A stretch of 61,288 bases of DNA, counting the filler. It is 4 parts of 4 records of this genome, joined end to end, with 100 filler letters (N's around TTAATTAATTAA, not from the genome) between each part and the next. Parts side by side here need not be neighbours in the genome. Positions count along the whole stretch, not along the records: positions 1 to 22,503 come from SRR31156797_11099; 3 more parts are not named here. One strand, given 5' to 3'. Below are positions 10,526 to 55,157 of this stretch, one piece after another. The stretch's first letter is position 1. Each line of letters begins with the position of its first letter. A program made the translations under genes and the position numbers. A model generated the notes under the pieces. It ran no database searches. It was not told where the DNA came from and saw only the letters and a program-made list of their open reading frames with translations.

Positions 10526-11230
10526 CTATTCGAAATGAAAAGAAAGAGTAATTATCTTAGAATTCATTCCTCGTATGGCATCAGTATAGCCTTCGTAACC
10601 GGGGTTCTCTATGTCATATTTATGATTTAAAATATCTCTTAAACCAATTGCAAATTTCAATTCTGTTGCTAATTTAAAATATGGCAAATAAAAATCAACA
10701 CCAGCTCCTAATTCCAAATAAAAATCGGTAGTATTCAATCGAATCAACATGTTATTATCCGGATCTAAAGCATCCTGAGACTGAACGTCAATTTTATAGC
10801 TGGCGCCACCAATTAAATAAGGGCGATAATTATTTAACCTTCGAGCTCGATACTTTAATAGTAATGGAAGATTAACTAATACAGATTCCACTGTTACTTC
10901 ATCTTGAGGCAAGTTTGAATATTTTATTGTTCTTTCACCAAATTCTAATCCTGGTAAAAATCGTAGCGACCAATTTTCATGCAAACGTAAATCGGATACA
11001 ATCCCAACCGAAAAGCCAGGAGAAAATACTACTTGCTCAGCTCTGGCATTTGACAATCCAGAATTATACAGCGCAAAATCCATATTATTTATCGCCAAAG
11101 TAAATCCAAAATGCAACCATTTCTGATCTACCTTTTGATAATTCAAGATACTTTCAGGATTATACCTGCTCTGCGAAAAGGCAGAAGACATGCTAATTAC
11201 GCATATGAGTATTAAGAGTATTTTTTTCAA
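10526..11230 (-). CDS. porT: Type IX secretion/gliding motility beta-barrel protein PorT/SprT
   Basis: Signal peptide; DQKWLHFGF, GFSVGIVSDLRL, LRFLPG, PYLIGG, GVDFYLPYFK, terminal FE; conserved neighbourhood with menG, trmH and tamL. Confidence 0.85.
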   Translation of the reverse strand: MKKILLILICVISMSSAFSQSRYNPESILNYQKVDQKWLHFGFTLAINNMDFALYNSGLSNARAEQVVFSPGFSVGIVSDLRLHENWSLRFLPGLEFGERTIKYSNLPQDEVTVESVLVNLPLLLKYRARRLNNYRPYLIGGASYKIDVQSQDALDPDNNMLIRLNTTDFYLELGAGVDFYLPYFKLATELKFAIGLRDILNHKYDIENPGYEGYTDAIRGMNSKIITLSFHFE

Positions 11231-11273
11231 GCCAGAGAATTTGGTTTTTATTATTAACCTAAAAAGACAAATT

Positions 11274-12002
11274 TTATTGTACAGGTTTCGTTCCTATATA
11301 AATTGATGCAATTCCAAAACTCAATTTAATTTGTTTTGTATCAATGAAGCCACACTCATTATATATCTTCAAAAAATCAGCTCCATCAGGAAAAGCATCC
11401 ACTGATTCCGGCAAATAAGTATATGCCGAAGAATCCTTCGAAACCATTTTACCCCAAAAAGGTAATATCCTGAAAAAATAAAAATTATAAATCTGTTTTA
11501 TTGGAAAATTTCTAGGTTTCGAAAATTCAAGAATCACAACTTTTCCTCCGGGACGTACAACTCTATTCATCTCACTTAATCCCTTTTCAAGATTCTCAAA
11601 ATTACGTACACCAAAAGCCACTGTAATGGCATCAAAAGAGTTGTCTTCAAATTGGATATTTTCCGAATCACCTTCAAACAATTCGATCTTATCCGAAAGG
11701 TTTTTCTTCGCAATTTTTTCTCTCCCAACTGCAAGCATTTCAGTAGAAATATCAATACCTACAACTTTGTCAGGATTCAATTTTAAATTTGCAAGTGCAA
11801 AATCTCCAGTTCCCGTAGCAATATCTAATATTCTTTTGGGCTGCAATGGCTTAAGCAGTTTCACCGCTTTTTTTCGCCATAGTTTATCGATTCCCATAGA
11901 AAGAACATGATTCAGAAAATCGTACTTTCTAGCAATATTATTAAACATCAAGGCAACTTGAGCCTTCTTTCCTTTATCTAACTCTTTATACGGATTTACC
12001 AC
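11274..12002 (-). CDS. menG: Demethylmenaquinone methyltransferase UbiE/MenG
   Basis: [53 protein letters not shown]. Confidence 0.93.
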
Positions 12003-12080
12003 GGGTAAATTTTAATCGGTTACTAAAAAAAATAGCGATCGCGAATTTCTATCACGACCGCACAAATATAATGAATGAAA

Positions 12081-12109
12081 AACAAAGAACCATTAATCAG
12101 TTCTTTGTT
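12081..12109 (-). terminator. Hairpin terminator after the PurL-like gene
   Basis: aacaaagaac/gttctttgtt 10-bp inverted repeat just past the stop at 12138. Confidence 0.55.
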
Positions 12110-12137
12110 CTCTTATTAATCTGAAAACTAAAGTTAA

Positions 12138-14291
12138 TTAGTTCGTTGTATTCTTGTGGTAAATCTTTTTATATTCATCAATGTAACCATAGGAAATATC
12201 ATCAATTCTAAGTTCACTCTTGGTTACATGTCCTAAAGTTGAAAATGGTAATCCACTCTCCATCATGGCATCTACGAAATCATCTTCATTTTCCATCGAA
12301 ACAGATACAACTACACGTCCTTGAGCTTCTCCAAACAAAAAGGCATCCTTTCTAACTTCAGCAGGTGATGTAATATCAAATCCCAAACCTAATGGCATTG
12401 CTGATTCTATTAAATTAAAGAATAAACCACCTCTCTCCACACTATGAGCAGAACAAACTAGTTTTGAAGAAATTAATTTTTCCACAACAGCATTAATTGC
12501 TTTTTCTTCATTTAAATCAAAATGTGGCACTCCTACTTCACACTTTTTATGAAAAGAGCATAAATATTCAGAACCGGCTATATCATTTCTTGATTTCCCA
12601 ATTATAAAAATCATATCACCTTTATTTCTAAAAATATAGGACATGTGATTTTCTTTTGATGACAATAGTCCCATCATTGCAATAACCGGAGTTGGATTAA
12701 TAGCCTTTCTTTTTCCTAAAACAGAGCTCTCATTATAAAAGCTAACATTACCTCCAACAACCGGAGTTTTAAAGGAACTACTTGCTTTGGTAATCCCTTT
12801 AATCGTTTCAACAAACTGAGAATAAACATCCTCTTCAAGAGGACTTCCAAAATTCAAGCAATCATTAAAAGCCAAAGGTTTACCTCCCGAACAAATGATT
12901 CTACGAACCGCTCTGGCTACATTTATTTGTGCACCAACATACGGATCATTATACGCATACACTGAATTTCCGGATACTGTAAAACAAATTGATTTATTAT
13001 CCGATCCCAAAGATGATATCTGAGCATCGGAAGGAGAACTATGGCGTTCCTCAATTTGACCTTGATAGTATTCTTTTACAACCAAATTGGCATTGTTTAC
13101 CATCTTATTAATCACCTTCCAATAATTATCTGGCTCAGGTATATTTTCAAGGTAATTAATTGATGAATCATTCGTTAAAGAATGATATTTTCGTTCCACT
13201 TGAGGTGCTCCATAATCCATCACCAAATTTTCACCAAAAAACTCTGCAACCACCTCTGAATTCTCAAAAACACGTATGGTTTTCTTATCAGTTACAAAAC
13301 CAATTTCTTCACATAAAATATTAAATTCTTTAAAGGTGGAAGAAACCAAACTAGCATGTTCCTTATCAATTACCAACAAAAGCCTTTCCTGTGTCCGAGA
13401 CAACAATACTTGCTCAATTCTCATTCCCTCCTGACTTAGAGGGACCTTGTTCAAATCAATATCAAGTCCTGCTTTTGCAAATGCACTAATTTTAGAACAA
13501 GCACTAATAATACCTGCCACATCCATATTTTCAATTCGAACGATAGCATCCTGTTTATTAAGCTTAACAATTGCCTCAATTAAGGAATTACCCAAACTAG
13601 GATTTCCTTTTGGGATAGTGAAATTTTCATCCTGCCCCATAACCCCTTCCGATCCGGTAGGAGTTCCTACAATAAAAATCAGTTGACCTAGATTTACTTT
13701 TCTTTTATAAATTAATTTATCCCTATTAACAATCCCGGCAACCATTACATTTACCAATGGATTTGTATCGTAAGTTGAATTGTAAAAAATCTCACTTCCG
13801 ATATCTTCCATGTAAAGAACATTCGAATAATCATGAATTCCTTTTACAATTTCATCCATTAACCATTTAGTTCTATCCAAAGAGGCATCTCCAAATCGTA
13901 AAGAATTCATCACGACCATTGGTTTTGCACCAAGAGATACAACATCCCTACAAACATCTCCCACACACGTAGCAGCTCCCTGGTAAGGATCAATTCCTGA
14001 TGGATGATTGTGAGTTCCCATTTTAAAAACACATAATTCACCATTACCTAAATCAACAACACCAGCACTAGATTCTCTCGCACCAGAAATTATGTGATCT
14101 CCCTGATTTGGTAATGAATTAAGCCATGCCGAAGAGCTTTTATAGGATACATTCTCAGACCACATGACAGAATAAATTTGTAACTCAAGCAAATTTGGGG
14201 CTCTCCCCAACCCTTCAGCTATAATTTCAAATGCGTCTTTTGTAATTCCAAGATCCTCTGCTAATTGAATTGAAACCTCCTGTTTTTCCAT
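12138..14291 (-). CDS. PurL (FGAM synthase small-PurL type) paralogue with degenerate catalytic motifs
   Basis: Full-length PurL architecture (MWSE..SYKSS, HNHPS..DPYQGAAT, NSLRFG, DCLNFGSP, GGNVSFYNE, LFGE.QGR) but many active-site substitutions; see findings. Confidence 0.85.
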   Translation of the reverse strand: MEKQEVSIQLAEDLGITKDAFEIIAEGLGRAPNLLELQIYSVMWSENVSYKSSSAWLNSLPNQGDHIISGARESSAGVVDLGNGELCVFKMGTHNHPSGIDPYQGAATCVGDVCRDVVSLGAKPMVVMNSLRFGDASLDRTKWLMDEIVKGIHDYSNVLYMEDIGSEIFYNSTYDTNPLVNVMVAGIVNRDKLIYKRKVNLGQLIFIVGTPTGSEGVMGQDENFTIPKGNPSLGNSLIEAIVKLNKQDAIVRIENMDVAGIISACSKISAFAKAGLDIDLNKVPLSQEGMRIEQVLLSRTQERLLLVIDKEHASLVSSTFKEFNILCEEIGFVTDKKTIRVFENSEVVAEFFGENLVMDYGAPQVERKYHSLTNDSSINYLENIPEPDNYWKVINKMVNNANLVVKEYYQGQIEERHSSPSDAQISSLGSDNKSICFTVSGNSVYAYNDPYVGAQINVARAVRRIICSGGKPLAFNDCLNFGSPLEEDVYSQFVETIKGITKASSSFKTPVVGGNVSFYNESSVLGKRKAINPTPVIAMMGLLSSKENHMSYIFRNKGDMIFIIGKSRNDIAGSEYLCSFHKKCEVGVPHFDLNEEKAINAVVEKLISSKLVCSAHSVERGGLFFNLIESAMPLGLGFDITSPAEVRKDAFLFGEAQGRVVVSVSMENEDDFVDAMMESGLPFSTLGHVTKSELRIDDISYGYIDEYKKIYHKNTTN

Positions 14292-14446
14292 GGTGCAAGA
14301 TTTTAGGTAATGAATATTTTAAATTTAAAAAAAATTAGATAGGAACACGAATTATCACCTTAGTTTTTACCTTTACTAAGCGAATTAAAATCAATTTGAA
14401 ATTGATAAAATAGACTCAAACACATCATAAAAATCACAAAATACAA

Positions 14447-15205
14447 ATGAATAAAATTGCCTTTATAACAGGAGCTACAGCTGGCATTGGCGAGGCTTGT
14501 GCAATAAATCTTGCCAAAGCAGGATTTGATTTGATTATTTCTGGAAGAAGACAAGAAAATCTAGTTCAATTGGAAAAGAAACTTACTTCAGAAAACAATT
14601 GTAAGGTTTTTAGCTTAGTTTTAGATGTTCGAAACCAAGACGAAGTAGATCAAAAAATAAATTCGCTTCCTGAAGAATGGAAAAACATCGATTTACTTGT
14701 TAACAATGCTGGTCTGGCTGTTGGTGTTACAGCTATTCAGGATGGAATTATAGATGATTGGGAACGAATGATTGACACCAACATTAAAGGGTTACTATAC
14801 ATTACCCGTTCTGTTAGCCCATTAATGATTGAACGAAGTCAAGGTCATATTATTAATATCACTTCAATTGCAGGAAAGGAAGTATATCCTGGAGGAAATG
14901 TATACTGTGCAACCAAGCATGCAGTAGATGCCTTAACTAAAGGGATGAGAATAGATTTACTACCTCATAATATTAAGGTTTCTTCAATAGCTCCTGGCAT
15001 GGTAGAAACGGAATTCTCTCTTGTTCGATTTAAAGGTGATGAAAAAAAAGCGGATCAGGTTTACAAAGGGTTTACACCTTTATATGCAAAAGATATTGCC
15101 GAAACTGTTGAATTTGTTGCTACTCGTCCGGCTCATGTAAATATTAATGATATTTTGATAATGCCTACGGCACAAGCTTCAGCTCGTGATGTATTAAAAA
15201 AGTAA
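14447..15205 (+). CDS. Short-chain dehydrogenase/reductase, YdfG-like
   Basis: TGATAGIG, LVNNAG, YPGGNVYCATK, RPAHVNIN..MPTAQ. Confidence 0.9.
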   Translation: MNKIAFITGATAGIGEACAINLAKAGFDLIISGRRQENLVQLEKKLTSENNCKVFSLVLDVRNQDEVDQKINSLPEEWKNIDLLVNNAGLAVGVTAIQDGIIDDWERMIDTNIKGLLYITRSVSPLMIERSQGHIINITSIAGKEVYPGGNVYCATKHAVDALTKGMRIDLLPHNIKVSSIAPGMVETEFSLVRFKGDEKKADQVYKGFTPLYAKDIAETVEFVATRPAHVNINDILIMPTAQASARDVLKK

Positions 15206-22116: not shown

Positions 22117-22503
22117 ATGTCAAAGATTAAAATTGGTATCAATGGATTTGGTCGTATCGGACGTTTCGTTTTCCGTCAGGCTGTAGCAAAAGGTAACATC
22201 GAAGTAGTTGCAATTAACGACCTTATTGATGTAGATTACATGGCTTACATGTTAAAATATGATTCTACTCACGGAAAATTCAACGGTACTGTTGAAGTTA
22301 AAGATGGTCAATTAGTTGTAAATGGTAACGTTGTTCGCGTTTCTGCTGAAAGAAATCCAGCTGATATTAACTGGGGTGCTGTAGAAGCTGAGTACGTTGT
22401 TGAGTCTACTGGTCTTTTCTTAACTAAAGAATCGGCTCAAGGTCACATCGATGCTGGTGCTAAAAAAGTTGTTATGTCTGCTCCTTCAAAAGACGATACT
22501 CCA
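22117..22503 (+). CDS. gap: Type I glyceraldehyde-3-phosphate dehydrogenase (5' part, cut by contig end)
   Basis: [42 protein letters not shown]. Confidence 0.97.
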
Positions 22504-22603
22504 NNNNNNNNNNNNNNNNNNNNNNNNNNNNNNNNNNNNNNNNNNNNTTAATTAATTAANNNNNNNNNNNNNNNNNNNNNNNNNNNNNNNNNNNNNNNNN
22601 NNN
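22504..22603. other. Artificial contig linker
   Basis: N44-TTAATTAATTAA-N44; the 12-mer gives stops in all six frames. Confidence 0.97.
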
Positions 22604-23393: not shown

Positions 23394-24695
23394 TCAGTTT
23401 GACAAAAAACAGTCTTCTTTGATTAGCAAACGATCAGCATCAAGGGACAAGTCAAAAGGCACAACAAACAACCGAAAATTATCAGCATACTCAAAAGCAG
23501 GCAGAGGCTTGGTAAAAATGTCTGACTTTGGATATATTAAATAGACTTCTTTTACTTCTTGGTCGAGAAGGTACTTTTTGCCATAAGCAAACATCTGATA
23601 TAAATCCGATTGTCCAATGGAATTATTAATTGATGAAGAGCTATTCTGTCCCAATAATTTCCATTTTGTATCTGCTACAAAGGTTATATCATCTCTACAG
23701 AGAAGAAGGTCAGGCTTCATGAGAAACTGTTTCTTTCCCTCCTGTTGCAACAAATAATGCTTTCTGGCTTGCGTTTTTATCTGCCAGTCTGGATAGAGAA
23801 CCCGAAGCCTTGCTGCGACATAATCTTCAAAGATTCTCTCCATGGGAAAGAGTAACGATATTGAGCGGGTATCACCAGCTGTTCCAATAGGACTTTGATC
23901 AAGGAGGATGATGCGGCACCAGTCAAGAACGTGCTGATAGTAGCCGATGCTTCTGTCTTTAGAGCAGCGACTGAGATCATGACGAACATCACAAGCTGGC
24001 GGTACATCGTCAAATGCGAAAAGCAGTTCCCTACATAAACGCTGATTCCTGCTTTCAACAATAAAGAAACTAATCTTTTCAAGTGCACTTCGAATGAGAC
24101 GGTTTTCCGGTCTGTTCACCTGAAACTCATCATACTCCGCATAAAAACGGTGCTGATTAACCAAATTATGCCGAATCTGCTCTGCAAGCAACAGTTTCCC
24201 TTTCACGAAGGAAAGGTTGTCCCTGGTTGCAACATAGTCCGAGCGAATACCACGCTTCACGAGCGTATTCACCTGATTTAGGAAATAACTTACAAAAATT
24301 TCAATGAGAGGCAAAGAAACATCAGCAAGCAAAGCACGTTCGCTTTGCCGAAAGGGGGAGTTGCGAAGATGACTTAACATACGAATCAGGATACTTCTGA
24401 CCTGACTATGACCTAACTCATGGCCAGGTCCGCTATATATTTTCGGAAGAATCTCAATCTGAGTACCAGAAGAAGTTTGAAGCACCCCGACATAGTTTTG
24501 CACCTGCAATGAACGCTTCCCTTTATACATGGAGGGCTGTAGGGAGAAGCGACTTTCGTTATCAGAAGATATCGAAAAAAGATGGGTCTCAAGAAAATCA
24601 AAATCAGAAGCAGGAATGGACAACACTTTTTCTTCATCTACAGACACAGGCTGTGCCCTTACCAAGTGTCCATATTCCCTTATCAGAAGAGGCAT
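23394..24695 (-). CDS. mcrC: McrC family restriction endonuclease subunit
   Basis: QNYVGVL..IEILPK, NRPENRLI, LLFPMERIFEDYV, KPDLL, ADTKWK, DLYQMFAYG; directly downstream of mcrB. Confidence 0.92.
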   Translation of the reverse strand: MPLLIREYGHLVRAQPVSVDEEKVLSIPASDFDFLETHLFSISSDNESRFSLQPSMYKGKRSLQVQNYVGVLQTSSGTQIEILPKIYSGPGHELGHSQVRSILIRMLSHLRNSPFRQSERALLADVSLPLIEIFVSYFLNQVNTLVKRGIRSDYVATRDNLSFVKGKLLLAEQIRHNLVNQHRFYAEYDEFQVNRPENRLIRSALEKISFFIVESRNQRLCRELLFAFDDVPPACDVRHDLSRCSKDRSIGYYQHVLDWCRIILLDQSPIGTAGDTRSISLLFPMERIFEDYVAARLRVLYPDWQIKTQARKHYLLQQEGKKQFLMKPDLLLCRDDITFVADTKWKLLGQNSSSSINNSIGQSDLYQMFAYGKKYLLDQEVKEVYLIYPKSDIFTKPLPAFEYADNFRLFVVPFDLSLDADRLLIKEDCFLSN

Positions 24696-24701
24696 ATTTT
24701 T

Positions 24702-27668
24702 CTATTCCTCTTTCAATGCAGCACTGTCATAAACACCTATATATGCTTTTGGATCGGTTAGAGCATCTTCATTACGTCTGTACTGTTTTACCCTGTCCAA
24801 TCCATACATTGTCAGATCAGTGGAGTTGCCAAACAATACATTGCCGCCATCTTCAAGCTCGTCCTCTAAAATAAACTGGGCTTCAGGGGTATCCTGCTTC
24901 TGATTATCCCCCAGCACCAGCCTGATTTTCTGCCAGTCCTCAAAAAAATACTCAGCCAACAAAGGAATAATTTTATTGGCAAAAATAGACGAAAGGTTTT
25001 CAATACTAGGGTCATTAATGAGAGGAATAAAAAAGGCATGACCAATGCTATGTTCCCTATCGTACAATGCCTCGACCCTCAGATTCATTGCCTGAAGCAG
25101 TTTATCAATTTTTATCTCACCCACCGCTACGTCTTTAAGCAGGTCGCAATCCGGCATCATCTCTTCAAACTCAAAGCGTCTTCTCAAGGCAGTATCCATC
25201 AAGGCAAGAGAACGATCTGCAGTATTCATGGTACCCACAATATGCAGATTAGCAGGTATACCAAACTCATCTCTTGAATAGGGTAGTTTGACGGTGACTT
25301 CATTGGCCATGCCCAGACGTTTATCCGGTTCAAGCAGGGTGATAAGTTCACCAAGGACCTTACTTATATTGGCCCTGTTGATCTCATCAATGATCAGAAC
25401 ATATCGTTCTGTTTCGTTAGATTGCTCCTCTTCTCTTCTGCCACCAAGCAATTTTTCTAGATATGTCATATTGAGATGCGCAGGCCGAAGAGTATAGATT
25501 GTTTGTTGTGAAAACTGCTTACCCCATATCTTTTCAACTGGAATTGCGGCATCCTTTATCAACCATTTCACTCTACGGAAATGTTCATATCCAAGTCCTG
25601 GCAGAAGATCAGGTTTGTACTCATATTCGCCTTTCACCTGACCTATGGCCTGTACCTGGCTAAGCCCTTTGGGGACAATAACAATATCCCCAACATCAAC
25701 ATGATTTTTAAACCAGAACATTGCTTGGGTGGCGAATCTCTTCTCAGCATAATCAGAGCCGTGTTCAACCATGAGATTCTTTATGGCATCACGAGCGGGC
25801 TCCCAATTTTTCTCTTTAGGGAGCTTTGAGAAGTCGACATCACCACCCCATCCAAGCGCTAGGTAATCATTTTCGAAGCAGAACGATTCCACTTCAGGAT
25901 CATATTTTCCCCCAACTGACATTTTGTAGAATTTCTTTCCTTTCAAATCGACACTGGCAGATGCAGTGCGATACAAGTCAGCAATTGCAGTCTGGGCCAT
26001 TGAGCAGATCTTTTTAAATATTCCATCCTCAACCCTATAAATGAGCTGTTCCTGCTCCGAATCAGACTGGCTTGAAAGATCAGGGCGGATTCCTTCTATA
26101 AACTCTTCGTAACTGAAGGATTGGTGAAAGGACACAAAACTGATCCTTTTATCAGCAACAAGTTCCTTATATCTCCTCATAAGAGCAGCCCTGTCAACGG
26201 GACTGTTGCCATCGCAGATCTGGACTGCACGCTGCGCTGTTTTATAAGTTTTACCTGTACCTGGCGGGCCATAAAGAATCTGATTGAGAGGATACGAGGT
26301 CATCACAATATTTGGTTGTTTTTCATCGGTTGGATTAAGCTCCTTGTCTGGCGGGGTATTTCCATCTGAAGTTTCTGGGTTATAGTGCAAGGCTGACCAG
26401 AAGAAACTCTGTACATCAATCTTATCCTGAGGGGCCAGGCCATCTTTTTCCAGAAACTCAAACACCTCTTCGGCCAGCCGCTGGACACGATAATACTCTT
26501 CTGATACAAGGCTTTCGTTTGCAAAGGTATCAAGGTTAAACAACTTGAGAATTTTGTTTACCTCATCGGTCTTGATAAAAAAATGAGTCCTGGGGTCACT
26601 GATAAAGAGAAAAAAAGTGGTCACGCTCCGTGTTGCTGCAGGGCTACATTTCCCTTCAGGTGCGTATTTTTGTAAAAATCTGATGAAATCAGGGATTCTT
26701 TCATCAAGGCTGCGCTCAGCATCTATCAAACCTGATACAGCCCTTGCAAAATCAATATACCCCTCCCTGGACATTTTATTGGCAAACTCAAAGTATCGCC
26801 ATCCCACAAGGTTCTGTGGCGCATTCTCACTTTCCAGCTTTCGCTTAAAAAGCATTGCCAGGTCTCTGCCAAGCTGCAACACTTGTTCTTCGCCAGATAC
26901 CAATGGCCGCAACCTTGATACAAACTCATGAGCAAAGATATCGCATAGTTCCTTTTTGTAATTACGCTCATCTTGCAAATATTTTTTCGGAGGATTAACA
27001 AATGAGATGAATCCAGGGTAGTAATCGAGAAAATTCTTTTTAATCTGGTTATATGCTTGGCGAAGGCTTCCCTCTTGCCAGACGGTCGGACCAAATTCCA
27101 GCAGGCTTGCACCTTCTCTATGACGCATAATCTCAGGATACAAGTTAGAAAAAGTAGACTTTTTGGGATGGGCAGGCGTGCCTTTTGCTTGCAAATAAGA
27201 CACCAACCATTCTTTTTTGAAGGTATTGATAACTGATGGATTCTCTCTGTTCTGGTAGAGAAAAGCCACCTTCCATTTATAGATAGGATATAGATCTATC
27301 TTTTCTATCGTTTCCAGCTCACCAGCATATGCTGCCTTTGCTATCTTCACGATAGCGTCCCTGACAAAATGAAATGCTTCCTCTCTTGTGGAGCCGTACT
27401 TTTTAAACCAGGCGTATTGACCATCTCCCTGGTATTGTTTTTGGTACACCTTATCTGGACTTTTCGATGCAAATATTCCGAATTTAAAGGCAACCGTCCC
27501 TCTTATACGCCCCAAGCTATCCAGCTCTCGCTCCACCCACCAGGTAAAGGTATCTTTTGAGCCAACCTGGCTATATTGCTCTAATGTCAACGATGACAAT
27601 TTTTCCAATGGGAACCGCTCTAAAAATTTATCCCAAAGTTGGTATTCTTTCTGTGTTGATAGGTCCAT
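24702..27668 (-). CDS. mcrB: McrB family AAA+ GTPase with long N-terminal region and an inserted domain
   Basis: NQILYGPPGTGKT, FHQSFSYEEFIEG, IIDEINRAN, GTMNTADRSLALMDTALRRRF, IGHAFF, IIPLLAEYFFEDW. Confidence 0.92.
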   Translation of the reverse strand: MDLSTQKEYQLWDKFLERFPLEKLSSLTLEQYSQVGSKDTFTWWVERELDSLGRIRGTVAFKFGIFASKSPDKVYQKQYQGDGQYAWFKKYGSTREEAFHFVRDAIVKIAKAAYAGELETIEKIDLYPIYKWKVAFLYQNRENPSVINTFKKEWLVSYLQAKGTPAHPKKSTFSNLYPEIMRHREGASLLEFGPTVWQEGSLRQAYNQIKKNFLDYYPGFISFVNPPKKYLQDERNYKKELCDIFAHEFVSRLRPLVSGEEQVLQLGRDLAMLFKRKLESENAPQNLVGWRYFEFANKMSREGYIDFARAVSGLIDAERSLDERIPDFIRFLQKYAPEGKCSPAATRSVTTFFLFISDPRTHFFIKTDEVNKILKLFNLDTFANESLVSEEYYRVQRLAEEVFEFLEKDGLAPQDKIDVQSFFWSALHYNPETSDGNTPPDKELNPTDEKQPNIVMTSYPLNQILYGPPGTGKTYKTAQRAVQICDGNSPVDRAALMRRYKELVADKRISFVSFHQSFSYEEFIEGIRPDLSSQSDSEQEQLIYRVEDGIFKKICSMAQTAIADLYRTASASVDLKGKKFYKMSVGGKYDPEVESFCFENDYLALGWGGDVDFSKLPKEKNWEPARDAIKNLMVEHGSDYAEKRFATQAMFWFKNHVDVGDIVIVPKGLSQVQAIGQVKGEYEYKPDLLPGLGYEHFRRVKWLIKDAAIPVEKIWGKQFSQQTIYTLRPAHLNMTYLEKLLGGRREEEQSNETERYVLIIDEINRANISKVLGELITLLEPDKRLGMANEVTVKLPYSRDEFGIPANLHIVGTMNTADRSLALMDTALRRRFEFEEMMPDCDLLKDVAVGEIKIDKLLQAMNLRVEALYDREHSIGHAFFIPLINDPSIENLSSIFANKIIPLLAEYFFEDWQKIRLVLGDNQKQDTPEAQFILEDELEDGGNVLFGNSTDLTMYGLDRVKQYRRNEDALTDPKAYIGVYDSAALKEE

Positions 27669-27696
27669 GATTGTTTGGGAGAAATATGGCTGCTGG

Positions 27697-29439
27697 TTAA
27701 TGGTTAACTGCCTTTGCCACTATGGCGTTTGCTAATTGCAATTGATTAGCTTGGGCCTCTACCATTCGAGCTTGGAGTTTGTCACATATGGCCATGAGTT
27801 CATCGACTTTAGCGACTATTAGGTATTGTTCGGACAGTGGGGGAAGGGGTATTATCATCAATCCCAAATCCCCTAAACGAAAGCTGTTTTTCAGCCCTCT
27901 TTGTGGAGCATTAAACTGACAAGCCGCTAAAGGAGATCTCATAAGCTCAGGAAAATACCTGTTTCGACAATCGGGCATAAATCTTAATAAACATGTATGT
28001 TGGTTTATATATGCCTCACCAAAATTATCTGGTATTAAACCAAGATTTCCGACATCTCCTGTAATTGAAATTAGTAGATCTTTTGCTTGTAACTTTGTTC
28101 GAGAACCTTCCCCTTTCACAGGAGGAGCAACATATCTCAGGTTGTCTAATCTCAATTGATAACTGCCACGTGAAAGGTTACCCATTGTTACAAAAACCGC
28201 ACCTTGATCTGAATAATATTTAGCCCATCCTCTGGAACCAGAAGTTATTAGTAAAGCAACATCCCAAACCCGAACCCACTCCCATCCATCTGGAATTTCA
28301 AACGGCTTTTCACCTGCACTAATTTCTGGCAATTTCTTTTGTTTTTTGATTTTCCCCTGTTTGATGAGTTTAGTTTTCTCAGCAGCAATTTTCTCAAGCA
28401 ACACGCTTGCTGGCTCATCGTTTGGATCTTGGGGGACAAGTTTACCCATGATGGCAAGTTGGAGGATAGTTTGTTTGAGGTGGTCGATGGATTGTTCGGT
28501 AGTGAATAGGCAGTCAAAGTGGTCTGCGATGCGTTGCCATGTATCGTTGAACTCTGTTTGATCGGCGGCATTGGTGAGGACGGAGAGTAGGGTTTCTACC
28601 AGGGCTTGGTGGGTAGCGTTGCTGTCTGTTTGCTGCTGCTCCAGTTTATCGCAAAGGATCATGAGTTCATCGACTTTGGCTACTATACGGTGTTGTTCTG
28701 CTAAAGGTGGTAAGGTAATGACATAATTTAACAGTTGATCCTGTCGTATACCAGCAACGGTTGTACCAGTCCCTTTGATCTTCAATGTGGAAAAAAACAG
28801 CAAAAAGAAATTAACATCTAAATTAGAAGTCAATTTAACAGCCTTTAGATCTTGGTTAATTGCGACTTTTATTTTGGATATAGCAATTTTCCCTAACCCC
28901 ATACGAGTGCAAATGATGACATCATTAACTCCAGCAAGCTTGCTTCCTGTTTTTAGTCCTTTTTCAGTAATAGTATCTTGAGTTCTTTTTAGATATTTTT
29001 CTGTTCCAAGATCCTTTACACTTGCCCAAGGAATGTCACCATTCCAATACTCAGGGTTTCTCTTACTAGGAGTACCGCCACTAATTATGGAATTTATTAA
29101 AGTACCTAATCGACATACCTCCCACCCTAAAGGCATCTCAAAATGTTTTTCTTCCTCACTAACCTCAGATAATTTTTTCGGTCTTTTTATTCTCCTTTCT
29201 TTGATCAGCCTGGCTTTTTCTTTTTCTATTTTTTCCAACAACACACTTGCAGGTTCATCATTCGGATCTTGAGGTACCAACTTCCCCCGAACAGCCAACT
29301 CTAAAATTAATTCACGCAGCTTCTTAATCCCATAAATTGACTGGTCGTTCGCTCCCTTACTGCGTCCCCTCCCACCATTCTTCTTTTGAAACTGTGCTGA
29401 GGTCCAAACATCAATATGCTCAGTAATCAAATCCATCAT
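27697..29439 (-). CDS. hsdS: Type I R-M specificity subunit, EcoAI-like (type IB)
   Basis: Two copies of LAxxGKLVPQDPNDEPASVLLEKI and PPLxEQxxIVAKVDELM flanking two TRDs. Confidence 0.95.
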   Translation of the reverse strand: MMDLITEHIDVWTSAQFQKKNGGRGRSKGANDQSIYGIKKLRELILELAVRGKLVPQDPNDEPASVLLEKIEKEKARLIKERRIKRPKKLSEVSEEEKHFEMPLGWEVCRLGTLINSIISGGTPSKRNPEYWNGDIPWASVKDLGTEKYLKRTQDTITEKGLKTGSKLAGVNDVIICTRMGLGKIAISKIKVAINQDLKAVKLTSNLDVNFFLLFFSTLKIKGTGTTVAGIRQDQLLNYVITLPPLAEQHRIVAKVDELMILCDKLEQQQTDSNATHQALVETLLSVLTNAADQTEFNDTWQRIADHFDCLFTTEQSIDHLKQTILQLAIMGKLVPQDPNDEPASVLLEKIAAEKTKLIKQGKIKKQKKLPEISAGEKPFEIPDGWEWVRVWDVALLITSGSRGWAKYYSDQGAVFVTMGNLSRGSYQLRLDNLRYVAPPVKGEGSRTKLQAKDLLISITGDVGNLGLIPDNFGEAYINQHTCLLRFMPDCRNRYFPELMRSPLAACQFNAPQRGLKNSFRLGDLGLMIIPLPPLSEQYLIVAKVDELMAICDKLQARMVEAQANQLQLANAIVAKAVNH

Positions 29440-29441
29440 GA

Positions 29442-31313
29442 CTATGCTGTGCCCCCATTACTCAGAGCATCAGCCAGAATACTTTTCAGCTGGTCACGTA
29501 GGCTGGATATCTCCTGTTGCTGGCTGACATATTTTTGCAGCAACTCATCAGGATCGTAGTTGATCTGCTCAGCTACATGAGGATTTTTGATATCAAGATT
29601 ATAAATGGGCCAATAATGACCATCTCCGGTTGACTTTACTTCTTTGGCCTTGGCAACCAATTTATCTGCGTTGTTCTTTAAAGCCTGGATTGAAAGTTCT
29701 AGACTTTTTGCCACTTTCAATTGTGTTGAACACTCAACAGCATCTTCTAAAGATTGGATAAGTACTTCATTGAAATCTCGTTGTTCCTGCTGTTTTTCAT
29801 CGGTCCTTAAATCCTCCAGTTGATCTAGTAGATATGTTTTAAGCTCTTTATCTTTTTTCCTACCAACAAGAGAATCTTGTAAACATTTTGCTTGTCTTCT
29901 AATCAATGAGGCCTGATTATTAAGCTCTTCAGCCTCATCCCAATGTGGTTGTGCCTTGGCGAGGGCATCCTCTCTCAGCTGTTTAAAATCAATTTTCCAA
30001 GCCTGTTCTGTCTCCTTCCGATCTTTAAACCCATTGGACTCATTGCCCCACCAATCTGCTATGGGCTGGAGCTCTTCGATACGTAACGGTTTCGTTTTAG
30101 AATAACTTTTTACTCCTTGAGGATAATGATGCTCGTAGAACCAGATGGTATCTGTTGGTTTCCCTTTAGTAAAAAAGAGAAGATTGGTTTTTATGCCGGT
30201 ATATGGGTTGAAAACACCATTTGGTAAACGAATAATGGTATGCAGATGACATTCCCGCATTAAAAGTTTCTTGATTTTGGCCTTTACCCCTTCACCAAAA
30301 AGAGTACCGTCAGGCAAAACAATGGCACCACGTCCGCCGTTGTCCTTGAGTAATTTCTTGATGATGAGCACAAGGAACATATCTGCTGTCTCACGGGTTT
30401 GGACGTCTGAAGGGAAATCAGTTCCCACTCCGTCGTCTTCCATCCCACCGAAAGGTGGATTGGTGATAACGCAATCAACCCGCTCTGGAAGCTTCCAATC
30501 ATTCCACCCCTTACCTAAGGTGTTACGATGTTTAATCATGCTTGGCACCTCAATACCGTGGAGCAGCATATTGGTCGTACACAGTAAATGGGGGAGCTGT
30601 TTTTTCTCTATCCCGCGAATACACTCGGCAATAGCCTTTCTATCCTCCGCACTTGATTTTTCGGTAAGTTGTTGTTCAAAATGTTCTATGGTTGCAGTAA
30701 GAAACCCGCCAGTTCCGCAGGCAGGGTCGAGAACAACCTCACGTTTTTTGAGGTTAGGATTAACCATCTGCACCATAAATTCAGTTACTGCTCGTGGGGT
30801 GTAGAATTCGCCAGCATTTCCGGCGCTACGCAAATCACTTAGTATCTGTTCGTAGATTGCACCAAGTTGACCACGGGTTTTGATGTCATGAAAGTTGATG
30901 GCTTCGTCAAGCTTCTCAATAATTCCAAGCATTAATGTGCCAGATTTCATAAAATTATTGGCATCAACAAAAACTTCCTGAACGACTTTGGCTTTTGGGT
31001 CATTCTCGATATTTAATTCTTTGAGGCTAGGAAAAACGATATTATTGACGTGTTGGATTAATCCACTCGCAGGGACCTGTGGTTTTCCATCTTTGAAAGC
31101 AGCCCAATTTCGCCACCGGCAATTATCAGGAAGTGAGGAAAGGAAAATTTCACCCCTATCTTCTGCGTCATCCTCCCATGTTTCTTCGCACTGATCAAAA
31201 ATCTTGAGAAAAAGCATCCAGGCGAGCTGACCGATACGCTGAGCATCCCCGTCAACGCCATCGTCTTTGCGCATAATATCCTGAATAGTTTTTATGGTAC
31301 TGCTGAGATTCAT
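29442..31313 (-). CDS. hsdM: Type I R-M N6-adenine methyltransferase with a large C-terminal helical insertion
   Basis: IQDIMRKDDGVDGDAQRI, GEFYTPR, DPACGTGGFL, TNPPFGG, YNLDIKNPH. Confidence 0.95.
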   Translation of the reverse strand: MNLSSTIKTIQDIMRKDDGVDGDAQRIGQLAWMLFLKIFDQCEETWEDDAEDRGEIFLSSLPDNCRWRNWAAFKDGKPQVPASGLIQHVNNIVFPSLKELNIENDPKAKVVQEVFVDANNFMKSGTLMLGIIEKLDEAINFHDIKTRGQLGAIYEQILSDLRSAGNAGEFYTPRAVTEFMVQMVNPNLKKREVVLDPACGTGGFLTATIEHFEQQLTEKSSAEDRKAIAECIRGIEKKQLPHLLCTTNMLLHGIEVPSMIKHRNTLGKGWNDWKLPERVDCVITNPPFGGMEDDGVGTDFPSDVQTRETADMFLVLIIKKLLKDNGGRGAIVLPDGTLFGEGVKAKIKKLLMRECHLHTIIRLPNGVFNPYTGIKTNLLFFTKGKPTDTIWFYEHHYPQGVKSYSKTKPLRIEELQPIADWWGNESNGFKDRKETEQAWKIDFKQLREDALAKAQPHWDEAEELNNQASLIRRQAKCLQDSLVGRKKDKELKTYLLDQLEDLRTDEKQQEQRDFNEVLIQSLEDAVECSTQLKVAKSLELSIQALKNNADKLVAKAKEVKSTGDGHYWPIYNLDIKNPHVAEQINYDPDELLQKYVSQQQEISSLRDQLKSILADALSNGGTA

Positions 31314-31340
31314 TTAATAATTCCTGTGTTCACAAGTGCA

Positions 31341-33797
31341 TCATGCACATATATCTTCATAAATTGCTTGTTCCAGTTCTGTGAGAGCTTGAGAATATTT
31401 ATCGTTTCCACCAAAGATTGTACGGCGAATCTGTGTCTTAGTTCCGAGATTATTAAAGGGCGGCAATTCAAGAATCTTTGGATCTTCAATATCAGCAATC
31501 CCGTGATCGGCATATTTTTCCAGCAGGGCATCAAGAACAATGCGAGCTTGGTCACCATATTTCGCAAAGTAATTTCTTTTTATTACCTTATCGGCACGCT
31601 CCTTCCGGGTAAGAGGTGGTTGGTCAAAAGCAATATGAGCAATGAGATCAAAAACATCAATTACAGCTCCAGAAGGAACAGCTTCACGAAGCACTGCAAG
31701 GGAAACTCCTTGCTCTTTTAACTCATCGAGAACCACTTTCTTTCGTTCAGCCTCACTCCAGCGTCGGAGAAAATCTTTCATAGAAACAAATTCTCGTCGT
31801 AGTGTTTTCTTAATTTCCTCTTTAAGAAGTACACGATAGTCTTCGGTTATGAGTTTTCCGTCCTTATCAAGGTATTGAGATCGCTCAATGGCTGTTGTTA
31901 CATCAACATCATCAATGACGTAACGAGTGCGTTCTTCTGTTTCGCCACCCCCACTTTCATCCTCTCCTCCGCTCTCCTCTTTTTTAGTTTCTTCACCAGG
32001 CGCTGGCTCCATACCGCATTCTTCATCATTTGCTGATTCATCATCGACCGGCGGGAGAATGGGATCGTCAGGACTTGGTTCATACACAGTGGCAGGCTCA
32101 CCATCAAAATCTTTGTCTTGGAAAAGACGGGTTGCCCCCTTAAAATCCATTATGGTGAAATAAAGTTTATTATAATCCTCACGTATACGGGTTCCCCTGC
32201 CTATAATTTGCTTAAACTGAGTCATTGATTTAATGTTTTGATCAAGGACAATCAGCTTACAAGTTTTCGCATCAACACCAGTGGACAGCAGCTTTGATGT
32301 GGTAGCAATCACGGGGTAAGGTTCGTCGTTGTCTATAAAATAGGATAATTGTGCTTTGCCCTCTTTATCGTCACCGGTCATGCGAACAACATAGCGCCGA
32401 TTGTTTGCAGCTTCGGGAATAAGTTTAACAAGCTCTTGCCTCATTCGTTCAGCATGTGGCTGATCATCACAAAAGATAATGGTCTTAGCTTTTGGATCAG
32501 TACCTTTGAGATATTCCCATACCCGTGTTGCTACGTATTGGGTCCGATTCGTAAGAATCATTTCACGATCAAAATCTTTTGTTGTGTATTGCCGTTGCTC
32601 TACAAGTTGTCCATGTTTATCCGTCTTTCCCTTTTCCGGTGTATAACCCAGAGCATCGACATCAGTCACTACCCGAATGACCTTATAGGGAGCGAGAAAA
32701 CCGTCTTCTATACCCTGTTTCAGGGAGTATGTGTAAATGGGATTTCCAAAATATTTGAGATTGTATTCAGGCTCCAGAATCTTTGTCTCACCTTTTTTAG
32801 GCTTTTTTTCCTTGGGAGTAGCTGTCATTCCAATATGAGTTGCTTCTGTGAAATAGTCTAACACCTCTCGCCATGCCGAGTCTTTGTTAGCACTTCCACG
32901 GTGGCACTCGTCAATAACTACAAGATCAAAAAAGTCTTTTTCAAATTGACGGTAAATTTGTTTCCATTCCTCTTTACCTGTAACTGCCTGATAGAGGCAG
33001 AGGTAGACCTCGTAGTTCTTTTTAACTGTACGGTTGGTGATTTTATGCATCACTTCACCAAACGGAGCAAAGTCCTGCTGGATAGTCTGATCAATCAAAA
33101 TATTACGATCAGCAAGAAAGAGAATACGTTTCTTTTTTTGGGCCTTCCAAAGTCGCCAGATAATTTGAAAAGCTGTGTAAGTCTTGCCTGTACCGGTCGC
33201 CATGACGAGAAGAATACGCTGTTGCCCTTTAGCAATTGCCTCAATGGTTCGATTTATAGCAACACGTTGGTAATAACGTGGTTCCATTCCACTACCATCT
33301 GAGTGGTATGGTTGGGTGAATAGTTCATTCTGTTCAGGCTGATTTATTCCTTTCCATTCTTTATAAATAGCCCAGAGGTCATCATAGCTTGGGAATTCGT
33401 CTAAGGTGAGTTCTCGTTCAGTTGGACTGGTAATTCCACTGGAATCATGTAGGAGAAATCCATCACCATTTGAACTGATTGCTATTGGGACATCGAGCAT
33501 ATCTGCGTAGACAAGTGCCTGTTGCATTCCTTGTCCCACTTCAAAGATATTTCTTTTGGCCTCAATGACCGCTATCGGAATATTAGCTTTTGCATATAAA
33601 ATGTAATCAGCCCGTTTCGGCCCACCTTTTGCTTTCGGACTCTTAAGCCGACGAGCTAAATTGCCACGCACAAGGATTCGGCCATCAGTTAGGCTGACTT
33701 CTTCACGGAACTGATTTTGTTGCCAGCCGGCAGCTTGAATAGCCGGAGTTATGAACTTAGTACAAATATCACGTTCACTGAGCTCTTTTTTATTCAT
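31341..33797 (-). CDS. hsdR: Type I R-M restriction subunit, EcoAI-like
   Basis: LSERDICTKFITPA, ADY..VIEAK, MATGTGKT, DECHRGSA, TATP, QIIGRGTR, EcoEI-type C-terminus. Confidence 0.95.
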   Translation of the reverse strand: MNKKELSERDICTKFITPAIQAAGWQQNQFREEVSLTDGRILVRGNLARRLKSPKAKGGPKRADYILYAKANIPIAVIEAKRNIFEVGQGMQQALVYADMLDVPIAISSNGDGFLLHDSSGITSPTERELTLDEFPSYDDLWAIYKEWKGINQPEQNELFTQPYHSDGSGMEPRYYQRVAINRTIEAIAKGQQRILLVMATGTGKTYTAFQIIWRLWKAQKKKRILFLADRNILIDQTIQQDFAPFGEVMHKITNRTVKKNYEVYLCLYQAVTGKEEWKQIYRQFEKDFFDLVVIDECHRGSANKDSAWREVLDYFTEATHIGMTATPKEKKPKKGETKILEPEYNLKYFGNPIYTYSLKQGIEDGFLAPYKVIRVVTDVDALGYTPEKGKTDKHGQLVEQRQYTTKDFDREMILTNRTQYVATRVWEYLKGTDPKAKTIIFCDDQPHAERMRQELVKLIPEAANNRRYVVRMTGDDKEGKAQLSYFIDNDEPYPVIATTSKLLSTGVDAKTCKLIVLDQNIKSMTQFKQIIGRGTRIREDYNKLYFTIMDFKGATRLFQDKDFDGEPATVYEPSPDDPILPPVDDESANDEECGMEPAPGEETKKEESGGEDESGGGETEERTRYVIDDVDVTTAIERSQYLDKDGKLITEDYRVLLKEEIKKTLRREFVSMKDFLRRWSEAERKKVVLDELKEQGVSLAVLREAVPSGAVIDVFDLIAHIAFDQPPLTRKERADKVIKRNYFAKYGDQARIVLDALLEKYADHGIADIEDPKILELPPFNNLGTKTQIRRTIFGGNDKYSQALTELEQAIYEDICA

Positions 33798-35868: not shown

Positions 35869-37014
35869 TTACTCAACTTGGCTTTTCATAATCCAGCCAA
35901 ACTCTTCTCCATATTTTATTAATATACAGTCTTCAAAAACAAGGCATACTTCAACTACATCACCTTTTTTCAGATCAAAAAAATTATTAACAAAACTTGT
36001 CTTAAGTTTGAAATTTCCACCATCTTCTTCGATTAAAGAATTAAAAACTGTGAACTTCTTACCACTTTCTATATGTTTGCACAAAGTCATGGCACTGCCT
36101 TTTTTTATGATTTCAAACTCATAATGTGGATAATTAACATATATTTTTTCTTCCATAGGAAATCTCTTACTTTTAGTTATTTCCATCTTAACAAAATTAT
36201 TTTCCTGTATATAGTCATAGGAAATTTCGCCGTTTCTTTTTTCAACTATAAAAGCATTTAATTCTCCGGCTGACTTTACTCCTAGACCACCATCTATTGA
36301 GATAATATTTTTTTCATCATTAAAAAACGGAATATTACTATGAGAATCATTTCTTAAATTACATGTCGGCCAATGGCCAACTACAACTTTTTTCTTTTGA
36401 ATTTCAGCCAATCTATTATAGTCATCAAATTTTAGAAATTTCCCCTCATCTTTTTTAATATTAAACTCACTATTATAACCACCGTGGACAAATATAAAAT
36501 CATCATTTTCAGCTATAATTGGCAGGTGTTTAATATATTCCAGAAATTCAGAGTGTTTTTCATTTACATGTTTTTGAAACTCTTCCCCTGTCTCAAAAGA
36601 CTCTAATTTTAGATCCGAAAACTCAAGTAACTCCTCAAGTACTGTTGAAAAGTTTTCCTCCTTTAGGAAATCTAAAAACATATCAGAAAACTCATGATTA
36701 GTTGTCCCAAAGTGGATAAAGAATTCATGGTTTCCTTTTAGAATAATCGTTCTCTCTCTTTTTTCAATTTCTCTAATATATTCATAAGTTTCAAAACTTC
36801 CAGGCCCTTTATTTATAAAATCACCAAGTATTATCAGGTAATCTCTCTCTTGCAAATCAACTTTAGCTATCAGCCTTTTTAATATATCAAGATGCCCGTG
36901 AACATCACTAATGGCAACTATTCTATAATTATCATTTTCAGCAATTTCAACTACTCTTCTTCGCACTATTATCATCCCTTTATTTACTAAAACTTTTAAA
37001 TATTTTATCACCAT
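35869..37014 (-). CDS. Calcineurin-like metallophosphoesterase with C-terminal extension (true start probably a few codons downstream)
   Basis: SDVHGH, LGDFINKG, KGNHE, FVHGG, VVGHWP, IDGG. Confidence 0.88.
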   Translation of the reverse strand: MVIKYLKVLVNKGMIIVRRRVVEIAENDNYRIVAISDVHGHLDILKRLIAKVDLQERDYLIILGDFINKGPGSFETYEYIREIEKRERTIILKGNHEFFIHFGTTNHEFSDMFLDFLKEENFSTVLEELLEFSDLKLESFETGEEFQKHVNEKHSEFLEYIKHLPIIAENDDFIFVHGGYNSEFNIKKDEGKFLKFDDYNRLAEIQKKKVVVGHWPTCNLRNDSHSNIPFFNDEKNIISIDGGLGVKSAGELNAFIVEKRNGEISYDYIQENNFVKMEITKSKRFPMEEKIYVNYPHYEFEIIKKGSAMTLCKHIESGKKFTVFNSLIEEDGGNFKLKTSFVNNFFDLKKGDVVEVCLVFEDCILIKYGEEFGWIMKSQVE

Positions 37015-46624: not shown

Positions 46625-46653
46625 TTGACTCGATTAATTTTATCGAGTATATT
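46625..46653 (+). promoter_or_regulatory. Sigma70/A promoter with a 7-7-7 palindromic operator
   Basis: TTGACT-N17-TATATT; ACTCGAT-N7-ATCGAGT at 46628-46648. Confidence 0.7.
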
Positions 46654-46756
46654 AATAGTGAGGTTAAAGATATTAATTCAAACTTTAAGATATTTAATTA
46701 TAAGTTTGATAATCTTAATATATATTTCAAATATAATAATTTATGGAGGTGAAAAT

Positions 46757-47125: not shown

Positions 47126-47153
47126 ATCATAACTTTTAGAAAGGAGAAAAAAA

Positions 47154-48515: not shown

Positions 48516-48562
48516 TTTATTAATAAATTTTAATTTCTACATGTAGCAAGGGAGGGGACATC

Positions 48563-48721: not shown

Positions 48722-48736
48722 AAAGGGGGAAGTATC

Positions 48737-52947: not shown

Positions 52948-53028
52948 ATTTATATATATAAAAAGCTCTAATAAAAGGCATTAAAAGCAAGACAAAATAG
53001 ATTACTAAAACGAGGAGGGAAATATTTA

Positions 53029-55146: not shown

Positions 55147-55157
55147 GGTGGTAGCAG

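Follow-up and report, generated by a model that had tools for sequence, protein, structure and literature searches.

The closest described relative of the protein reported here is the small PurL of bacteria, a formylglycinamidine ribonucleotide (FGAM) synthetase represented by the model TIGR01736 and the structures 3VIU and 2HS0/3D54. In the enzyme of Thermotoga maritima, His32 and His72 are said to be catalytic and Glu70, Asp94, and Asp236 to bind Mg, as Morar et al. reportedly described in 2006. The C-loop of PurL caps the bound formylglycinamide ribonucleotide (FGAR) and passes a signal on to the PurS-like N-terminal domain, according to the excerpted text of PMC7124931. An auxiliary ADP site of PurL is described as structural or vestigial in the human and Salmonella enzymes in the excerpts of PMC13013826 and PMC3815217. 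Here, we analyzed a window of 61,288 nucleotides (the whole stretch of DNA under study, filler included), which encodes TamL, PorT/SprT, UbiE/MenG, a hybrid histidine kinase, and restriction systems, and in which an open reading frame (ORF) at positions 12138..14291 encodes a small-PurL-like protein. We estimate a probability of roughly 0.55 that this gene encodes a PurL-derived pseudoenzyme acting through its C-terminal A2-B2 half by non-catalytic binding. Several features by which a pseudoenzyme is recognized were found here, namely homology and a retained fold without the catalytic residues, purifying selection, and an active large PurL in the genomes of relatives. That the protein lacks FGAM synthetase activity, that binding is its function, and that the A2-B2 pocket is the site are what we infer from these results.

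The ORF is intact, starts with ATG, and encodes 717 aa. The initial annotation had described an intact 717-aa frame with PurL architecture, and this description holds except for the strand, which is corrected to minus; the plus strand of 12138..14291 is riddled with stops. Three types of Pfam domains were predicted from the protein, the FGAR-AT linker (PF18072), AIRS, and AIRS_C, and the linker-A1-B1-A2-B2 architecture of small PurL is present. The gene and its parts are located as follows.

12138..14291, minus strand: small-PurL-derived ORF without the FGAM-synthetase catalytic set; stop codon at 12138-12140.
14112..14291, minus strand: N-terminal linker helices, aa 1-60; SEH>SEN at aa 45-47; PF18072 at aa 9-51.
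13707..14111, minus strand: A1 subdomain, aa 61-195 (approximate bounds), with the clade-invariant remodelled motifs KMG[TS]HNHP (Glu70>Gly) and GAATCVGD..RD (Asp94 retained).
13257..13706, minus strand: B1 subdomain, aa 196-345 (approximate bounds), the most relaxed, with IPKGNP, ENMDVAG (Asp236>Asn), and SRTQER.
13632..13637, minus strand: junction of a 12-residue deletion, Gly219/Gln220, at which most of the catalytic C-loop is removed, as seen in alignments and in a predicted local distance difference test score (pLDDT) <50 at aa 219-222.
13002..13256, minus strand: region connecting both halves, aa 346-430, with low model confidence at aa 408-416.
12657..13001, minus strand: A2 subdomain, aa 431-545 (approximate bounds), with DCLNFGSP and GGNVSFYNE retained and with D440S and N464R mirroring Glu70 and Asp94.
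12141..12656, minus strand: B2 subdomain, aa 546-717, the best conserved in all degenerate relatives, with KGDMIFxIG, SEYL, SAHSVERGGL, GFDIT, DAFLFGEAQGR, and LGHVTKxELRIDD.

By hidden Markov model (HMM) score the protein is a borderline small PurL. It reaches 557.3 bits on the PurL equivalog TIGR01736 (cut-off 525.75) and 603.4 bits on the second small-PurL equivalog, NF002290, which is below the cut-off of 648, while canonical Bacteroidales small PurLs score 841-890 bits on TIGR01736. The v-FGAM-synthase model TIGR01739 matches aa 560-691 weakly (45.8 bits vs a cut-off of 716.1), and the protein is far below the cut-offs of other PurM-superfamily models, such as the sll0787-type and methanogenesis-marker-2 AIR-synthase-like HMMs. 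The AlphaFold (AF2) model, built from an alignment of 64 sequences, has a pLDDT of 89.5 and a predicted template modelling score (pTM) of 0.91, with pLDDT <50 only at aa 219-222, the loop remnant, and at aa 408-416. The best Foldseek match of this model is 3VIU, the PurL of T. thermophilus (template modelling score, TM, 0.90), which shares 31% identity in the structural alignment. HypE, SelD, ThiL, and PurM were also found as remote fold relatives. The protein is thus predicted to retain the PurM-type pseudo-dimer fold.

The protein was aligned residue by residue to T. thermophilus PurL (3VIU; phmmer E 1.6e-110) and T. maritima PurL (2HS0), with numbering counted along 2HS0. Each motif change listed in the initial annotation can be seen in this alignment: SEH>SEN, KIESHNHP>KMGTHNHP, GAATGVGG>GAATCVGD, QDMGAAG>ENMDVAG, and SESQER>SRTQER. 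The canonical TGRDGIxGAxFAS...VQVGDP has lost 12 residues and reads TGSEGVMG/QDENFTIPKGNP, and the C-loop span at aa 216-231 has 15 residues between its ends, compared with 27 in canonical proteins. His32 is replaced by Asn47, Glu70 by Gly92, and Asp236 by Asn255. The equivalents of Lys68, His72, His74, and Asp94 are retained, together with the GAAT and NPLVN motifs. The C-terminal half had been reported to keep DCLNFGSP and GGNVSFYNE, which it does, yet it is not untouched: D440S, N464R, and D617S fall at the mirror positions of Mg ligands.

These changes are characteristic of a family of orthologues. Proteins of 717-720 aa that share 52-96% amino acid identity were found in Marinifilum, Labilibaculum, and Ancylomarina as well as on metagenome contigs, which confirms the expectation that orthologues with the same substitutions exist. 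All 12 other aligned clade members carry Gly92, Cys109, Asp112, the 12-residue deletion, ENMD, and SRTQER; since the motif changes are common to these proteins, they are not due to chance. The clade forms a monophyletic group (support 100) in a tree of 41 rows, and its stem branch is 0.66 substitutions per site, compared with 0.2-0.3 for canonical tip branches, pointing to a burst of change followed by constraint.

The ratio of nonsynonymous to synonymous substitution rates (dN/dS) was estimated by the Nei-Gojobori method on codon alignments of orthologous loci, using seven pairs with a synonymous distance (dS) of 0.13-0.58. The ratio for the 717-aa gene is 0.040-0.080. In the same pairs it is 0.043-0.078 for tamL, 0.038-0.154 for the FAD protein gene, and 0.048-0.175 for the histidine kinase gene. 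By half, it is 0.043-0.093 for the N-terminal and 0.021-0.057 for the C-terminal half. The gene is present in 22 of 61 genomes of the GTDB family (Marinifilaceae), with all 22 frames open and TIGR01736 scores of 504-560 bits; a canonical small PurL was found in none of these 22 genomes, and 39 of the 61 have no small-type frame. The gene is not decaying and is under strong purifying selection in these marine Bacteroidales, so that the earlier suggestion of retention under selection for another role is supported, with constraint like that of neighboring housekeeping genes. Against this background, the least credible explanation is that the gene is a pseudogene nearing loss, or that its ORF is retained for non-protein reasons such as ubiE/porT regulatory signals, since the loss in 39 family genomes and the presence of every grade of decay among relatives are set against constraint along the full length and in each half, 22 open frames, terminator-like hairpins between the ORF and ubiE, and a confidently predicted fold.

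A second FGAM synthase is available in the relatives. A large PurL, encoded in a frame of 1,229-1,233 aa with a fused glutaminase domain, was identified in 5/5 Marinifilaceae genomes examined, and a large-type frame is present in 61/61 family genomes. The large PurL of the closest genome (G001) carries the motifs NSEHCRH, KAETHNFP, GAATGTGGEIRD, HDHGAGG, and NESQER and reaches 1,474.9 bits against NF003672, for which the cut-off is 783, bearing out the expectation of a second, canonical enzyme in the nearest genomes (1,475 bits in round figures). In G001 the large and small PurL genes are unlinked (contigs C1 and C3). PurS was found in 0/5 of the related Marinifilaceae genomes, and no stand-alone PurQ was found in these five, where PurQ-like matches lie inside large PurL with the exception of one 22-bit match (G005). 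The proposal that the protein is a regulatory partner of PurQ/PurS is therefore unlikely, neither having been found in 5/5 related genomes. Since 5/5 relatives have a canonical large PurL and lack PurS and a stand-alone PurQ, the small PurL-like gene is not needed for purine synthesis, and step 4 of the pathway in these bacteria is performed by the separate single-chain large PurL.

The same pattern extends across the order. A sample of 81 genomes was grouped by their small- and large-type PurL matches. In 22 of them, one match was found (841-890 bits, in a frame of 743-776 aa), and none of the large type. Eleven have lower small-type scores (805, 642, 560, 542, 464, 364, 227, 218, 196, 166, and 138 bits), and in 10 of them a large-type frame is present as well; the exception is G068, with no large PurL match at E 1e-20. 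Most of the remaining genomes have the large type only, and four have no match. Another genome (G072) with a 213-bit match in a 943-aa frame and no tblastn match to P0001 was left unclassified. Motif decay tracks the score across the small forms of this sample. PurS was identified in 6/6 genomes with canonical small PurL (G057, G036, G073, G079, G038, and G009) and in 0/14 genomes with a degenerate form. Stand-alone PurQ was found in 0/9 of the degenerate-bearing genomes tested, and among G009, G034, G077, G020, and G013 it was found only in G009 (243 aa, 288 bits). G009 carries both complete systems (at L064, C223:28619-29299, C13:20653-20892, and C77), namely a near-canonical small PurL (805 bits), PurQ, and PurS, plus a large-type frame. 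It may represent a transitional state of PurL replacement.

The genomic position of the gene was compared with that of canonical purL. The features around the ORF are as follows.

10526-11230, minus strand: porT/sprT, downstream neighbor, marking the orthologous locus; together with ubiE/menG it spans 10526..12002.
11274-12002, minus strand: ubiE/menG, downstream neighbor, marking the orthologous locus.
12035..12112, minus strand: two terminator-like hairpins (12112-12078 and 12061-12035) between the ORF stop and the ubiE start.
14292..14446, no strand: 155-bp divergent intergenic region, without a purine riboswitch or other Rfam match.
14447-15205, divergent from the ORF: short-chain dehydrogenase/reductase (SDR; YdfG-like) gene, sharing the intergenic region 14292..14446.

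The closest locus, from an uncultured Marinifilum (L001/G001), encodes a protein sharing 97% identity with the 717-aa protein and is collinear over 22 kb. The order SDR, divergent from purL > ubiE > porT, surrounds canonical genes (e.g., L045, L047, L050, and L062) as well as degenerate ones (L064, L065, L066, L072, and all Marinifilaceae loci). This shared locus indicates that the gene is the positional orthologue of the canonical small purL of Bacteroidales, an orthologous relic and not a new duplicate, so that the initial term 'paralogue' is not retained. As that annotation had stated, no purQ or purS is found among the neighbors of the ORF. No ORF of at least 80 aa occurs in the flanking intergenic spaces, and a scan of the whole window against Rfam returned zero matches, purine riboswitches included. 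The hairpins suggest that the ORF may form its own transcription unit; terminator-like sites number seven compared with 1.5 expected (2.7 kb). Four RNA libraries, belonging to three studies, contain contigs that match parts of the gene, some of them without differences; such contigs do not show transcription, and the libraries may contain DNA.

Degenerate small PurLs are not restricted to this clade. A search of 1.84 billion cluster representatives returned 9,314 matches at E 0.001 or better, and 12 active-site positions were scored in the 136 proteins of 640-800 aa among the best 150 of them (including P0047 and P0125). Of these 136 proteins, 88 are canonical at 12/12 positions, 19 have one or two changes, and 29 have at least four, indicating that such relics are common. 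The window's protein is changed at 8/12 positions, and the replaced His32, Glu70, and Asp236 are invariant in all 88 fully canonical representatives. No convergence on the N-site states of the window's clade is seen in the other degenerate lineages. With a well-supported canonical outgroup as the root, the best trees require 4-6 state changes. A single clade of all 39 degenerate rows was rejected (p-AU 2.5e-41); once L065 and P0246, the latter placed within the outgroup, had been removed, a single clade of the remaining 37 was not rejected (p-AU 0.41), in tests whose groups were named after the trees had been seen and in which long-branch attraction favors a single grouping. These results would be compatible with several deaths that occurred independently or with a single dead lineage of ancient origin, and either implies long-term retention. 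No description of a dead small PurL in bacteria was found in the literature searched, and NCBIfam has no dedicated model for the degenerate proteins. Public records name proteins with changes at 8-9 of the 12 active-site positions 'phosphoribosylformylglycinamidine synthase subunit PurL' and others 'AIR synthase-related protein'. This naming is inconsistent, and as to function it is probably wrong.

Across these relics, conservation is inverted, in that the catalytic half decays and A2-B2 is kept, above all B2. In 104 canonical outgroup proteins, the positions at least 80% conserved number 52/135 in A1, 39/150 in B1, 28/115 in A2, and 9/172 in B2. In 39 degenerate proteins, from which near-duplicates had been removed, the corresponding numbers are 5/135, 5/150, 20/115, and 39/172, and 30 of the 39 conserved B2 positions lack such conservation in the outgroup. 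The B2 subdomain of the degenerate proteins shares 43-70% identity with the canonical Bacteroidales consensus (outgroup 26%), compared with 16-54% in A1 and 12-49% in B1. The motifs KGDMIFLIG, SEYL, GFDIT, DAFLFGExQxR, and LGHVTKGExRIDD persist even where the N-terminal half is unrecognizable. Polar residues conserved across the degenerate set are N442, Y445, R463, H616, D639, R647, D649, E655, Q657, and R659. A search of the ESM Atlas with B2 alone retrieved AIRS_C clusters only.

The auxiliary site was examined by self-alignment of the N- and C-terminal halves of the 717-aa protein (E 6e-09), in which Asp116 (= Asp94) mirrors position 464. The mirror relation of positions 440 and 617 was deduced from motif likeness. 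At these three positions the canonical Asp/Asn/Asp is replaced by Ser440/Arg464/Ser617, and Lys/Arg at 464 and Ser/Thr at 617 recur in other degenerate lineages. With Ser/Arg/Ser at the mirrored metal positions, an auxiliary Mg-ADP site of the usual type in A2-B2 is unlikely.

The most reduced form is found in G082 (L077, C56:3986-5023), which encodes a C-half-only protein of 345 aa sharing 37% identity with aa 381-706 of the window's protein. The gene lies 109 bp from the SDR gene in the order SDR, divergent from X > ubiE > beta-barrel outer membrane protein (OMP) > FAD protein, and is the only half-size gene whose genomic context was checked. In G082 a large PurL is present and PurS was not found. 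Stand-alone C-halves were also sought among 1,342 shorter matches. The 12 inspected mostly have canonical motifs and odd internal Met starts, and the 120 listed lie mostly on short contigs; they were read as fragments or split gene calls.

We propose the following mechanism for the pseudoenzyme. The small purL orthologue would have ceased to act as an FGAM synthetase after large PurL took over, and its former partners PurQ and PurS are missing. The A2-B2 unit, especially B2, is preserved by selection; in active PurL this half holds a non-catalytic auxiliary nucleotide site, and here it would bind non-catalytically through its conserved polar pocket or surface. The bound partner may be a small anionic ligand, e.g., a nucleotide without Mg, or a protein. 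Based on the replacement of Asp by Ser and of Asn by Arg at the mirrored metal positions, a bound nucleotide would be free of Mg. The N-terminal half would serve mainly as a structural partner of A2-B2, and the Marinifilaceae clade may in addition keep a remodelled, FGAR-incompetent pocket.

Several observations weigh against this proposal. The TIGR01736 score of the protein is still above the cut-off. The evidence that large PurL is present and PurQ/PurS absent comes from relatives, the closest with 97% protein identity, and not from the genome of the window itself. The 39 family genomes without the gene show that it is dispensable in some lifestyles. The equivalents of Lys68, His72, His74, and Asp94 remain, and some ATP binding may be possible. 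In the MARINIFILACEAE clade (Marinifilaceae), the N-site motif windows have top-residue frequencies of 0.80-0.97, compared with 0.66 in the rest of A1+B1, the loop remnant being an exception (0.67), and Cys109, Asp112, Lys228, Glu254, Asp257, and Arg299 are new clade-invariant residues. The old N-site therefore appears remodelled and not erased within this clade, and such conservation fits a working, changed N-site with a new ligand or chemistry as well as it fits a scaffold. Together, the motif conservation and the new invariant residues keep the explanation of a new ligand or chemistry at the N-site alive for the MARINIFILACEAE clade.

A bolder version of the same idea is that A2-B2 carries a lineage-specific second function in Bacteroidales, whether ligand-binding, regulatory, or even catalytic, and that this function alone kept the gene alive after the takeover by large PurL, repeatedly or for a very long time, down to a C-half protein. 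We put this forward tentatively, as it is less probable than the pseudoenzyme proposal. The site of the second function would consist of the ten polar residues listed above (N442 to R659). If it is true, function would be shifting between the halves of a pseudo-dimeric enzyme, with the window's protein as a snapshot of this transfer.

Alternatively, the protein could be a repurposed enzyme whose remodelled A1-B1 pocket would still bind a nucleotide, be it ATP or a different one, and activate some substrate that is not FGAR. PurM-superfamily members including ThiL, SelD, HypE, and PurM perform the nucleotide-dependent activation of other substrates, and relatives of this kind were among the remote Foldseek matches. 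The pocket would comprise Gly92, His94, His96, Cys109, Asp112, Asp116, Lys228, Glu254, Asn255, Asp257, and Arg299, which are at least 90% conserved over a clade of 52-96% identity, and in line with this idea the motif windows are better conserved than the remaining A1+B1, the dN/dS of the N-terminal half is 0.04-0.09, and acidic residues have been relocated, with Glu92 and Asp255 lost and Asp112, Glu254, and Asp257 gained. However, one wall of the cleft is formed by B1, and no domain is more relaxed: among the B1 positions conserved in canonical relatives, 48% vary in the clade, and its mean top-residue frequency is 0.63 vs 0.87. Position 47, formerly His32, is free to vary (N/T/R/S/A, top-residue frequency 0.62), other degenerate lineages at the same locus have unrelated N-site states and one has no N-terminal half, and no candidate substrate pathway is adjacent, the neighbors being the same as those of canonical purL. 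We consider a repurposed N-site unlikely, but together with the modulator described next it is the main rival of our proposal.

Still less probable is a modulator that, by analogy with vGAT/ORF75, would dock onto and tune active large PurL or another amidotransferase. Large PurL co-occurs with the gene in 22/22 gene-bearing family genomes and in 10/11 low-scoring genomes of the order sample, and the excerpts of PMC7605207 offer a precedent of pseudo-PurL proteins acting through the active enzyme. On the other hand, the glutaminase and N-terminal domains of large PurL are already engaged within its own chain, as the excerpts of PMC13013826 and PMC7124931 describe, the two genes are unlinked in G001, and G068 has a degenerate small form without a large PurL match. 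A working ammonia-dependent FGAM synthetase using substitute residues is very improbable. The TIGR01736 score, the retained His72, His74, Lys68, and Asp94 equivalents with GAAT and NPLVN, and the name PurL given by sources would agree with it, but three residues invariant in canonical proteins are replaced, the FGAR-capping loop is 12 residues shorter, NF002290 is below its cut-off, the stem branch is 0.66 vs 0.2-0.3 for canonical tips, and in the five relatives PurQ/PurS were not found and large PurL is complete.

Other features were observed in the remainder of the window. A 144-aa ORF at 22117-22551 (plus strand) is a truncated glyceraldehyde-3-phosphate dehydrogenase (GAPDH) comprising the N-terminal ~130 residues (positions 3-129 of a 331-position model). 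The region 23394-33797 has a G+C content of 0.42-0.43, compared with 0.28-0.34 elsewhere, and encodes a McrC-like protein, a 988-aa McrB-like protein, and a complete type I restriction-modification system (S, M, and R). Beside the truncated GAPDH ORF, this region looks like an inserted defence island. A diguanylate-cyclase-domain (GGDEF) gene at 37014-38186 (minus strand) lies directly upstream of a calcineurin-like metallophosphoesterase gene at 35869-37014 (minus strand), with overlapping stop and start. Genes at 46625-49276 (plus strand) encode a DUF2089 zinc-ribbon/helix-turn-helix (HTH) protein, a SHOCT-like protein with a DUF4097 'toastrack', and a LiaF-C-like protein, and this trio is likely an envelope-stress type module. 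Three co-directional ORFs of 208, 705, and 1,627 aa occupy 52321-60041 (plus strand). The 1,627-aa ORF contains DUF3686 ('ATPase involved in DNA repair'), DUF7902, and an AAA domain, the other two have no Pfam match, and PADLOC returned no match for any of the three. The GC skew changes sign near 52 kb.

The case has consequences for annotation, enzyme evolution, and PurL biology. Reconstructions of Marinifilaceae and many Bacteroidota metagenome-assembled genomes (MAGs) would count a PurL subunit that almost certainly does not perform FGAM synthesis, and missing PurQ/PurS may be wrongly deduced. The single locus offers a natural series, from PurLQS through coexistence (G009) and dead full-length relics to the C-half-only form, and a rare stepwise view of how a multi-subunit enzyme is replaced by a fused one and what becomes of the leftover subunit. 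For PurL itself, the relics show that selection keeps the auxiliary half in one lineage, and they would provide a catalysis-free system for studying its binding.

Compared to small PurL (TIGR01736; 3VIU, 2HS0/3D54), the window's protein has the same length class, domain order, fold, and Bacteroidales locus, but lacks His32, Glu70, Asp236, and 12 C-loop residues, and its SESQER motif is changed. Its PurQ/PurS partners were not found, relatives have a separate large PurL, and its conservation is inverted, with B2 the best and B1 the worst conserved. The conserved half, A2-B2, is the one that holds the auxiliary (pseudo-symmetric) ADP site in active PurL; Ser440/Arg464/Ser617 occur here, yet conservation around these positions exceeds that in active enzymes. 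PurM, ThiL, SelD, HypE, and the sll0787-type and methanogenesis-marker-2 proteins consist of the same AIRS/AIRS_C unit and gave weak HMM or Foldseek matches, and the C-half-only protein of G082 has the single-unit size of PurM-superfamily proteins, whereas the window's protein descends from PurL. The vGAT/ORF75/v-FGAM-synthase tegument proteins of gammaherpesviruses are likewise homologues of PurL/PFAS and, as the excerpts of PMC7605207 describe them, purine-synthesis pseudoenzymes with another role. These viral pseudo-PurLs appear to be the closest known analogues, although they derive from the eukaryotic large PurL, have viral structural and immune-evasion roles, and act with host PFAS, while the protein in the window is a chromosomal relic of a bacterial small PurL.

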